Shown here: positions 48,001 to 51,000 of the stretch, piece by piece
Layout: every line of letters begins with the position of its first letter
Numbering within the stretch: the stretch's first letter is position 1
NCBI GenBank assembly: GCA_964409365.1
Contig: CAYPCX010000001.1
Location: 64,684 to 128,683, forward strand
DNA from: an uncultured Planctomycetia bacterium
Lineage (GTDB): Bacteria > Omnitrophota > Gorgyraeia > Tantalellales > Tantalellaceae
DNA: 64,000 nucleotides
Direction of reading: 5' to 3'
Position numbers: made by a program

Positions 48001-51000
48001 CTATGATATAAGGGAGAACTTCGGGGAGAAGGTCTTTAATTTGTATGCAGAACGCGTTAAGTACAAGTTATGGTCGAACGAGTTGGGCTGTTTTGACAGG
48101 CCCTATGCGGGAGAGACCGACTACGCACTGCTTGTGGGCGACAGTTTCGCGTTCGGTTATGTCCCTTATGGTGATAACTGGGCCACGGTCGCGGAAGAGG
48201 CCCTGGGATACAGGGTGCTGAAATGCGGTGTCGTGGGTTTCAGCACCGGGCAGGAGCTTGTAAAGGCCGGGAGGGTCATAGAAAAGACGGGCGTCTCACC
48301 CAAACTGATCATCGTGGCTTATTTTTTTAACGACCTGGAAGAGGACTACCTTTCCCCCAAGCGTAAATACGCCGGCGGATACCTGATAAAGTTCAGGGAG
48401 CTGACCGATCTGGGAACCGGCCGGTTCAGCGAGGTGGAAGGGGACCTGGAGGAAAGGTTCCGCAACTGGGAGAGGTACATGACCTTCACCGAGCCGGAGA
48501 ACCGCCTTGTTTCCAGGATAAAGACCTGGCTGTGGAACCATTCGATAATCTATATGATGACCAAGGACAGGATAAAAGGGCTTCTTTCGTCGCTTAAGAC
48601 CGGCGGGAAACCCGAAGCGGAACAGTCCCGGGAAGAAGAGGACATAAGCGCGCAGGTCAGGTATCTTGCTTTTTATCCCCCCAAAAAATATCCCTGGTTG
48701 GAGAAGGCGTGGGAAAATAACCTTTCCAACCTTAAACAGTTCAGAGATCTCGCGGAAAAGAACGGTTCCCGGCTTCTGGTGGTTATCATACCTTATAAAG
48801 GGCAGGTCTATCCTTTTCTTATGCCGGTAAGCGGCCTGGACCTGGAACTTCCTAACAGGAAACTGCACGCGTTCTTTGACAGCAACGATATTGACTATAT
48901 AGATCTTTTACCGTATTTCCGTGACCATGCCGATCTTACCCCAAAACCATTTCTGGACCCCGTAAACGACCTTTATTGGCGGTATGACGGGCACTGGAAT
49001 ATCAAGGGGAACCGCCTGGCCGGTCTCCTGGTGTCGGGATATGTACTGGAAAAGGGCCTTTTGGACATACCGGACAGTGAGAATAAACTGTTATATATCC
49101 GGGAACAATTGAAGAAGCTGAATTAGCGCATATATTCCCCCATTTTCTTATTCCCTTAAACAAAACCCCCGTTTGTACAACCCCGGGGGTTAACCCCGGG
49201 GTTTGAAGTCGGTATAATTCGTGTGTGTATAAGAAGATTAATAATATTAATACTATATCCCGGGCATACATTGACTACAAATGACTATTAATGACTATTT
49301 AAGTGTATTGTTGAATTATAGAGATTTTTATTGACATCTTTTGGGAAAGGTATATAATATATAAAATTTATTGTTAGGAATATTATACCTAAAAAGGGAG
49401 ATTACATGGAGATCAAAGCGAACGAGGTATACACCACCCAGGAAGCCCAGAAACTGCTCAAGGTGAGCCCGAGCACCACAATGAGACTCATCAAAAAGGG
49501 CATCATCCGGGCGGCGAAAGTGGGGAAGCAGTACCGTATAATGGGCAAGGAGCTGTTGCGTGTAGTATCGCCGGAGCTTGAAGACAAGGTAGGCAAGGCA
49601 TACAACAAGGGCAGGCACTGGCTGCATGAGGGGATTGACGAATAGAGTCTATAATTATAAGAGGTGGTAGATATGGATCTCAGCAGTGCGAATAGGGGAA
49701 AGAGAAAAGGGAGACAGGGATGCCGTATAGGAAAATATTCATAATAGCCGAGGCTGGCGTCAACCATAACGGCTGCCTCAAAGCGGCAAAGAAAATGGTG
49801 GATGTCGCTGTGTGGGCCGGCGCGGACGCGGTAAAGTTCCAAACGTTCAAAGCCGAGAATATAGTTACCTCCCGGGCGGCTAAAGCGGCATACCAGGAAG
49901 AGACCACGGGAGAGGGTGGCACTCAGATAGATATGCTGAAGAAACTGGAGCTGGAACCAGGGGCTTATAAGGAACTCAAGAGGTATTGCGAGTTCAAAGG
50001 TTCTATGTTCCTGTCCACCCCGTTCGACCTGGGAAGCATAGACCTACTGGACGGTATGGGCATGGGTATATACAAGATACCTTCGGGTGAGCTCACCAAT
50101 TTGCCGTACCTCAGGAAGATAGGGGCCTTAAAGAGAAAGGTCATAATCTCGACGGGTATGGCCTACCTGAGGGAGGTAGCCGACGCTCTGGTGGTGCTCG
50201 AGGTGGCGGGCACGAAGAAAAAAGATATAACCGTTCTGCACTGTAATACCGAGTATCCGACCCCCTATGAGGATGTGAACCTTCGTGCTATGCTTACGAT
50301 AAAAGAAGCGTTTGACGTTGGTGTGGGATACTCCGATCATACGCTCGGCATAGAGATATCCATAGCTGCGGCCGCCTTGGGCGCGGAGGTAATAGAGAAA
50401 CACTTCACCCTGGACAGGAACATGGAGGGCCCCGATCACAGGACTTCGCTGGAGCCCGCCGAACTGAAAGAGATGATAGACGCGATCCGCAATATCGAGA
50501 TGGCCATGGGCGGTAAAGTGAAAAGGACGTCGCCCTCCGAAACAAGGAATAAGGACCTGATGCGCAAGAGCATAGTCGCGGCCGAGGACATAAAAAAAGG
50601 TGAAGAGTTCACTGCTAAGAATATAACCGTGAAACGCCCCGGCACCGGAATAAGCCCGATGAAATGGGACAAGGTTCTGGGGAAAAAAGCCAAGAGGGAT
50701 TTCGGTAAGGACGAGATAATAAAGTTATCTTGAGGACAAGGTCGGCAAGGTATACAACAAGGGCATGCACTGGCTGCATGAGGGGATTGACGAAGAACCT
50801 AAAAGCAGGGAGATGTAACTAATAAGTGCCGAATTTTTGAAGATAAGGAAATTGATATTTAAGCTTATCCGGGAGTGATGACTTGAAAAATATAAAAATT
50901 GGAACAAGAAAAATAGGATCTGAATATGCGCCGTTTGTAATCCCAGAAATAGGGATTAATCATGAAGGTGATGTTAATAAAGCTTATAAGATGGTAGACG

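Follow-up and report, generated by a model that had tools for sequence, protein, structure and literature searches.

A truncated helix-turn-helix gene fragment between two neuB genes as a probable scar of cassette exchange in an Omnitrophota nonulosonate cluster

Why does the 3′ end of a small helix-turn-helix (HTH) gene occur twice, on either side of a nonulosonate synthase gene, in the genome of an uncultured Omnitrophota bacterium? We addressed this question in a 64,000-nucleotide stretch of contig CAYPCX010000001.1 (assembly GCA_964409365.1, positions 64,684 to 128,683), hereafter the window, in which 22.5-64 kb is taken up by a single long surface-glycan region on one strand. At this locus an intact HTH gene is followed by the synthase gene neuB-1, by a second copy of the last HTH codons and by a different synthase gene, neuB-2, which stands near the start of a block of low G+C content (GC). 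We propose, with a rough probability of 0.7, that the repeat is the scar left by recombination that exchanged or displaced a cassette in a hypervariable glycan locus. It is an ordinary recombination scar rather than a new mobile element, and mechanistically it is nothing new.

The repeat pair and neuB-1

A repeat search of the window returned a single 66-nt direct repeat at the locus (Table 1), the copies of which are identical at 62 of 66 positions (94%), lie 1152 nt apart from start to start and lose all similarity abruptly at both ends, the right-hand limit being codon 79 of the HTH gene. The 39-nt core of the repeat, with up to three mismatches allowed, occurs at two sites only in the window, and none is expected from 100 shuffles. 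A preliminary description of the locus had reported this duplication, which is real, with about six substitutions where we count four, and with coordinates that were off by 1 nt at the left end of copy 1 and by about 6 nt for copy 2; it was right that the repeats bracket a GC-rich neuB-1 and that the second copy runs into a different ending. As the region is 100% identical in four independent assemblies from different samples (one from the European Nucleotide Archive, two Joint Genome Institute (JGI) metagenomes and one from Logan), the repeat structure is not an assembly artefact, and we rejected that explanation.

Copy 2 is a 5′-truncated piece of the HTH gene. In the HTH frame it reads LEDKVGKVYNKGMHWLHEGIDEEPKSREM up to a stop; it lacks a start codon and is closely preceded by other stops in this frame. 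A DNA profile of the HTH genes from 79 other genomes matches it in the window with E=3.4e-11. Its GC content is 0.53, with G or C at 17 of 22 third codon positions as read from the sequence. Of the four substitutions that separate copy 1 from copy 2, likewise read from the sequence, GAA to GAG and GTA to GTC are synonymous, with copy 2 carrying the family consensus at both sites, while GCA to GTA exchanges Ala for Val and AGG to ATG puts Met in place of Arg70, a residue that is invariant in the relatives. These changes fit a remnant under relaxed constraint, four sites being too few to decide between a duplicate and an allele, and we conclude that copy 2 is a nonfunctional pseudogene fragment of resident-type composition. 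Since its best match among the 79 species genomes reaches 56 of 66 positions, and no more than that across 87 other alleles, its 62 of 66 matches to copy 1 place its origin in this very genome or in a very close relative; the HTH gene of the low-GC genome described below, with 40 of 66, is not its source. The closest HTH protein alleles in metagenomes (91-92% amino acid identity) were also considered as donors of copy 2 and set aside, their DNA agreeing with the repeat at no more than 43-54 of its 66 positions, which neither identifies nor excludes a donor.

The bracketed gene encodes a full-length synthase that scores 502 bits against TIGR03569 (cut-off 399.65); its identity to even the nearest homologues does not exceed 69%, and many of these are named N,N'-diacetyllegionaminate synthase by JGI. 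Its GC content at third codon positions (GC3) is 0.645 and thus of resident type: genes between 2.5 and 50.7 kb range from 0.59 to 0.71, and the resident genes, with the HTH gene and neuB-1 counted in, from 0.62 to 0.75, the upper value being that of the HTH gene itself. Copy 2 begins 5 nt before the end of neuB-1, so that the TGA ending the gene (50731-50733) lies inside the remnant. NeuB-1 terminates in ...IKLS, whereas most close homologues end in ...IEL or similar, one residue earlier, which places junction J1 at the native 3′ end of neuB-1. In most of these homologues the stop codon and the start of the neuC-like gene behind it overlap. The original downstream neighbour of neuB-1 has been lost here, and neuB-1 itself survived because J1 falls exactly at its 3′ end.

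Table 1. Coordinates of features at the neuB-1/neuB-2 locus (window numbering)
Feature	Position	Strand	Remarks
Promoter match, sigma-70 type, upstream of HTH gene	49331-49358	+	TTGACA, 16 nt, TATAAT
HTH gene, intact, 79 amino acids	49406-49645	+	HTH_17 ('excisionase-family DNA-binding'); Pfam HTH_17 E=6e-14
Repeat copy 1	49577-49642	+	codons 58-79 of the intact HTH gene
neuB-1	49720-50733	+	full-length NeuB-type nonulosonate synthase; Pfam NeuB + SAF
Junction J1	50728/50729		neuB-1/copy 2
Repeat copy 2 with read-through	50729-50818	+	5′-truncated HTH remnant; repeat 50729-50794, TAA 50816-50818
Junction J2	50794/50795		copy 2/copy 3; composition switch
Probable copy 3	50795-50862	+	decayed low-GC L017-like HTH remnant, codons ~59-79 + stop
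Foreign low-GC cassette	50863-54600	+	L017-like spacer with ribosome-binding site, neuB-2, neuC, neuA, 5′ two thirds of aminotransferase gene
neuB-2	50883-51917	+	
neuC	51904-53037	+	
neuA	53018-53746	+	
Aminotransferase gene	53759-54964	+	DegT type
Crossover zone J3	54530-54660	+	inside aminotransferase gene

The low-GC block and its joints

The base composition of the locus switches to low GC at the exact right end of copy 2. From there to about position 54,600 GC3 stays at 0.30-0.40 (neuB-2 0.31, neuC 0.365, neuA 0.325), and the drop in GC that had been described for neuB-2, neuC, neuA and most of the aminotransferase gene is confirmed and sharpened by this measure. The first gene of the block, neuB-2, is 37% identical to neuB-1, and neuA is followed by the DegT-type aminotransferase gene and then by two radical S-adenosylmethionine (radical-SAM) genes.

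The same genes are found in L017 (JACROS010000052), an Omnitrophota genome of uniformly 35% GC, compared with about 52% in the lineage of the window. In L017 the HTH gene stands directly before homologues of neuB-2 (77% identity), neuC (73%), neuA (68%) and the aminotransferase gene (83%), without a neuB-1, and positions 50843-54933 of the window align with it continuously over 4.1 kb at 72.5% DNA identity, the spacer and ribosome-binding site before neuB-2 being L017-like as well. The proteins encoded upstream, by contrast, are only 44-62% identical to their L017 counterparts. The earlier proposal that recombination had placed a foreign nonulosonate cassette beside a resident neuB is thus borne out by the GC3 contrast, by the collinearity with L017 and by the mosaic aminotransferase gene described next, and these comparisons indicate that the block is foreign, from a distant lineage of the same phylum with about 35% GC and similar to L017. 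As a result of this import two different synthase genes stand in one operon.

The right-hand joint lies within the aminotransferase gene. Residues 1-280 of its product are 89% identical to the L017 protein and residues 281-401 only 69%; at the DNA level identity runs at 0.79-0.84 up to position 54,531 and at 0.61-0.64 thereafter, and GC3 climbs from 0.30-0.40 up to about 54,570 to 0.63-0.75, the rise occurring between 54,570 and 54,750. The coincidence of the identity drop with the GC3 switch places the right-hand crossover, J3, inside this gene.

On the left, the low-GC sequence next to copy 2 is probably itself a remnant, though we regard this assignment as tentative. The blastn alignment with L017 begins at 50843, within the last codons of the L017 HTH gene, and a longer segment, 50792-50862, is collinear with codons 59 to stop of that gene, with a score of 16 (shuffle p 0.0016) that is attained nowhere in 1038 windows taken from the low-GC block itself. 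In a single frame this segment reads KQGDVTNKCRIFEDKEIDI and a stop, as compared by eye with KVGRIYNKGRRWLHKGIDV and a stop in L017, and it would represent a donor-type HTH 3′ end, here called copy 3. Should copy 3 be real, then ...EEPKSREM would be no natural protein tail; copy 2 would owe this ending to reading on into the decayed 3′ end of a donor-type HTH gene.

NeuB-2 falls below the curated cut-offs of two equivalog models (367 vs 400 bits for NeuB, 233 vs 340 for PseI), and the recombinant operon may produce two different nonulosonic acids.

The proposed cassette exchange and its alternatives

To place the locus in a wider context, HTH loci were surveyed with one genome per species, and gene contents were counted at those with enough flanking DNA (59 downstream, 63 upstream). 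The HTH gene is near single-copy and occupies the same chromosomal position at 79 loci in 78 genomes. Nonulosonate-pathway genes lie downstream of it at 57 of 59 loci, a neuB homologue at 46 (immediately adjoining in 12), and PMT or YfhO glycosyltransferase genes lie upstream at 25 of 63. The downstream gene content differs widely, even between the closest alleles, and the HTH gene forms an island of DNA similarity: in 1977 of 3240 pairs of loci the DNA aligns over this gene, within the limits of its open reading frame (ORF). Its constant position, the ORF-bounded similarity and the variable genes behind it argue that in Omnitrophota the HTH gene forms the conserved left edge of a hypervariable site for cassettes of nonulosonic-acid and sugar-nucleotide genes. 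Two neuB genes, or an HTH remnant, were found at none of the 80 other loci; relatives that carry both synthase genes without the duplication, which together with uniform composition would have spoken against a recent insertion, did not turn up.

Against this background the structure at neuB-1 has the anatomy of a displacement scar, with an intact conserved gene, a module, a 5′-truncated 3′ fragment of the same gene and another module. The modules differ in origin, with a GC3 of 0.645 on one side of the scar and of 0.31-0.37 on the L017-collinear other side, and the locus also bears the marks of glycan-locus replacement, namely variable content beside conserved genes across relatives and a mosaic gene at the crossover. 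In the sequence of events that we envisage, an L017-like block of about 35% GC, comprising the 3′ end of the donor HTH gene, the spacer, neuB-2, neuC, neuA and the 5′ part of the aminotransferase gene, would have been joined to resident DNA, on the right by a homologous crossover within the aminotransferase gene (J3) and on the left by illegitimate joints (J1 and J2) at or inside copies of the HTH 3′ end. At a minimum, these two illegitimate joints and one homologous crossover would be required, and the product would consist of the intact HTH gene, neuB-1, the resident-type copy 2, the donor-type copy 3, neuB-2 and the remaining genes. The process was most likely homology-facilitated illegitimate recombination, in one round or two, with homology anchoring one end and the other joined illegitimately. 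Either neuB-1 would have arrived last, anchored on the left within or upstream of the HTH gene, or the low-GC block would have done so, anchored on the right within the aminotransferase gene. The repeat, the truncation, the composition switch, the L017 collinearity, the mosaic aminotransferase gene, the constant place of the HTH gene and the lack of recombinase genes are direct observations; how the events were ordered, whether short microhomologies took part and how the DNA entered the cell are inferred.

Several observations weigh against this reconstruction. The microhomologies, CTTGA at J1 and GAAGA at J2, are candidates read from the product sequence. Both remnants begin at codon 58 or 59, a coincidence that independent illegitimate joins do not predict; the shared start may stem from the overlapping CTTGA and GAAGA motifs or from chance. 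Copy 3 is a 67%-identical alignment backed by the direct comparison with L017, and the DNA and protein profiles of the family match copy 2 only and do not detect it. Neither an intermediate nor a sister genome was found, the nearest neuB-1 being 69% and the nearest neuB-2 77% identical, and among metagenomes the best relatives of neuB-2 reach 71%, none of them with an HTH gene within 4 kb. A full-length HTH protein with the ...EEPKSREM ending was not found among 5.8 billion proteins, where a chimeric query of HTH residues 1-57 and the copy-2 ending gave 1198 matches, none with the tail. Likewise, the tail DEEPKSREM plus stop, back-translated as GAYGARGARCCNAARAGYAGRGARATGTAA, had no match in a metagenome contig collection that evidently lacks the samples of the four same-strain contigs in which the pattern does occur. 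Finally, copies 1 and 2 are closer to each other than to any other allele, which is compatible with duplication within the genome.

That last point is the main argument for the alternative that fares best. A circular molecule carrying one repeat, the spacer and neuB-1 could have entered the HTH 3′ end by a Campbell-type single crossover, which yields direct repeats around the insert, or a 1152-bp unit could have been duplicated locally in tandem and the content of the second unit then replaced, leaving copy 2 as a decayed paralogue. Beyond the close kinship of the two copies, the split of their differences, with consensus at the two synonymous sites and two nonsynonymous changes that include Arg70, fits later decay. 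Similarity nevertheless stops at codon 79 and gives way to low-GC, donor-like sequence, which means that the additional illegitimate junction J2 is still required; moreover, neither a circle nor a second full unit is observed, and 66 bp is a short substrate for homologous integration. We therefore hold within-genome duplication to be unlikely.

Further down the scale of probability, two complete cassettes, each led by its own HTH gene and carrying neuB-1 and neuB-2 respectively, could once have lain in tandem, and a deletion that began where neuB-1 ends and reached codon 57 of the second HTH gene would have produced the present arrangement. One genome, WJMG01, does have two HTH loci (L012 and L029), which makes coexistence possible, and the position of the junction, precisely at the stop of neuB-1, fits a deletion tolerated by selection. 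However, this is the only case of two copies in 78 genomes and they lie on separate contigs, tandem HTH-led cassettes were not seen within 6 kb at any locus, and the scenario takes one step more than direct illegitimate joining; we consider it improbable. Similarly doubtful is the notion that the HTH 3′ end is a preferred landing site for the serial, recombinase-free capture of nonulosonate cassettes in an integron-like 'displacement array'. Were it true, two or three head-to-tail HTH 3′ ends starting at codon 58 or 59 would be the signature of such an array, but the 80 other loci are free of remnants, and the sole hint of a second event is the possible copy 3.

Site-specific recombination, which the preliminary description had entertained together with a role of the HTH protein as a recombination-directionality factor, is largely refuted on both counts. 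On that model the repeats would be attachment sites or would stem from a target duplication, with the HTH protein as an excisionase-like directionality factor; direct repeats do surround a single gene, and the protein matches the small DNA-binding domain family (TIGR01764, Pfam HTH_17) of Xis, TorI and AlpA-type excisionases, the TIGR01764 match being at the domain level only. Yet Pfam searches for integrase, recombinase and transposase families gave no match in the 49 long ORFs covering the 64 kb, and in the related contigs examined the genes called up to 10 kb from the HTH gene include none of these types. The repeats differ at four positions, one of them is a truncated coding sequence, and they bracket one resident-type gene and leave the foreign block outside, unlike attachment sites. 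Nor does the HTH gene show the patchy distribution of an excisionase gene that travels with its element: unlike excisionase genes, it is fixed at one position across the phylum, has neither a partner integrase nor a mobile element and encodes a C-terminal extension. A site-specific mobile cassette is, in our estimate, very improbable. Transposon target duplications, for their part, are short identical repeats of 2-14 bp that accompany terminal inverted repeats and a transposase; a 66-nt repeat with four mismatches is far longer, there are no inverted repeats at 49643-50728 and no transposase, and this origin was rejected. Retention of copy 2 for a function, whether as a structured RNA, as a terminator or attenuator between the synthase genes or as a frameshift extension of NeuB-1, is hardly credible, for although the remnant provides the neuB-1 stop codon and is unchanged in four assemblies, these are identical everywhere and hence uninformative on constraint, the predicted RNA fold does not surpass shuffled controls in stability (z=-1.17), Rfam and terminator scans of the remnant region gave no match and no plus-strand terminator, and the feature is missing from all other lineages surveyed.

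A scar of cassette exchange has well-known counterparts in serotype loci. O-antigen and capsule loci are replaced between conserved genes such as galF/gnd and dexB/aliA, and in the classical case homologous crossovers in both flanks exchange the whole block. As in such loci, a hypervariable glycan block of atypical GC here lies between conserved genes and comes with a mosaic crossover gene and junction remnants; what differs is that the left joint is illegitimate and that the resident neuB-1 has been retained, leaving two tandem synthase genes.

Toxin arrays offer a second comparison. Sequential (C-terminal) displacement arrays have been described at Rhs, contact-dependent inhibition (CDI) and type VI secretion system (T6SS) effector-immunity loci, where homology-facilitated illegitimate recombination is anchored in conserved upstream sequence (Kirchberger et al. 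2017, PMC5361080; also Jackson et al. 2009, as cited there). The locus studied here shares with them an intact conserved 5′ gene, a newly placed module, a displaced 5′-truncated 3′ fragment and an older module, with modules that come from different lineages and no recombinase. Unlike in those arrays, its modules are sugar-biosynthesis genes instead of toxin tips with immunity genes, the conserved gene encodes a small DNA-binding protein whose 3′ end does not specify the variable function, and the scar occurs in one of 81 lineages, with no sign of recurrent, selected array-building. Homology-facilitated illegitimate recombination itself has been reported in transformable bacteria (de Vries & Wackernagel 2002 and Prudhomme et al. 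2002, both as cited in PMC5361080) and in an E. coli conjugation case (PMC3240628). The present locus resembles these cases in having one homologous anchor (the aminotransferase gene, or the HTH gene with upstream DNA) and one illegitimate end, and short microhomologies may lie at its joint; it differs in that the process is inferred from its product only. Although comparable scars are thus already well known from serotype loci and toxin arrays, this one provides a base-resolved example of an uncultured Omnitrophota lineage remodelling its cluster for nonulosonic acid surface sugars.

The HTH leader gene and other features of the window

The most reusable by-product of the analysis is the recognition of an ultra-conserved HTH leader gene of Omnitrophota nonulosonate clusters, which marks the boundary between conserved and variable DNA throughout the phylum and can serve as a landmark for comparing Omnitrophota glycan loci. 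Its protein has more than 1300 homologues, and among the 120 matches listed identity is 84-100%, compared with 35-64% for the neighbouring glycosyltransferases. The gene behaves like a housekeeping regulator of the cluster, and the protein is most likely a DNA-binding regulator, as a candidate, rather than a recombination factor; it is also a candidate phylum-specific regulator. The promoter match upstream of the gene agrees with the consensus at 12 of 12 positions, as a consensus match only, and likely marks the start of a transcription unit that runs through the HTH gene, neuB-1, neuB-2 and onward.

Outside the Pfam domain the protein carries a conserved 25-residue C-terminal extension (SPxLEDKVGKxYNKGRxWxH). 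Its best NCBIfam match is the magnetosome protein MamR, at 45 bits against a cut-off of 100, a similarity at the level of the domain only. The predicted structure is moderately confident at most, with a predicted local distance difference test (pLDDT) score of 77.7 and a predicted template modelling (pTM) score of 0.47; a fold search of the PDB returned nothing at E<1 and a sequence search of the PDB no match, so no structural argument on the function of the protein can be drawn. A literature search that combined Omnitrophota with nonulosonic acid or excisionase gave nothing relevant, and the HTH protein is undescribed in the literature searched.

Assemblies tend to break at this gene. Eight of 79 genome contigs (L008, L011, L036, L039, L050, L058, L072 and L081) start less than 250 nt upstream of it and one (L044) ends inside it; the breaks thus accumulate at the HTH boundary, a pattern that would fit either strain-level heterogeneity of the flanking cassettes or an AT-rich promoter spacer that is hard to assemble. 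Upstream of the AT-rich promoter region of the window, in the spacer that follows an AlgX-like gene, lies a GC-rich palindrome, CAACCCCGGGGGTTAACCCCGGGGTTTG (49178-49205), which is probably the terminator of the upstream operon and was not called by the terminator scan.

Elsewhere in the window, a second low-GC patch at 56330-57604 (GC3 0.28-0.43) takes in a radical-SAM/SPASM gene (56501-57604) together with the final ~150 nt of the B12-radical-SAM gene before it, with resident-type composition on either side; it is probably another segment imported at the same locus. At the left edge, within 13-2529, a permease/PTS-EIIA (phosphotransferase system EIIA) fusion gene and a methyltransferase gene have GC3 values of 0.39 and 0.44, and the housekeeping genes that follow lie at about 0.65. 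Finally, a 46-nt direct repeat with 76% identity (47456-47501 and 59900-59945) is found in two class-I methyltransferase genes (47082-47828 and 59508-60296), where it most likely represents the shared S-adenosylmethionine-binding motif of paralogues and not a recombination feature.

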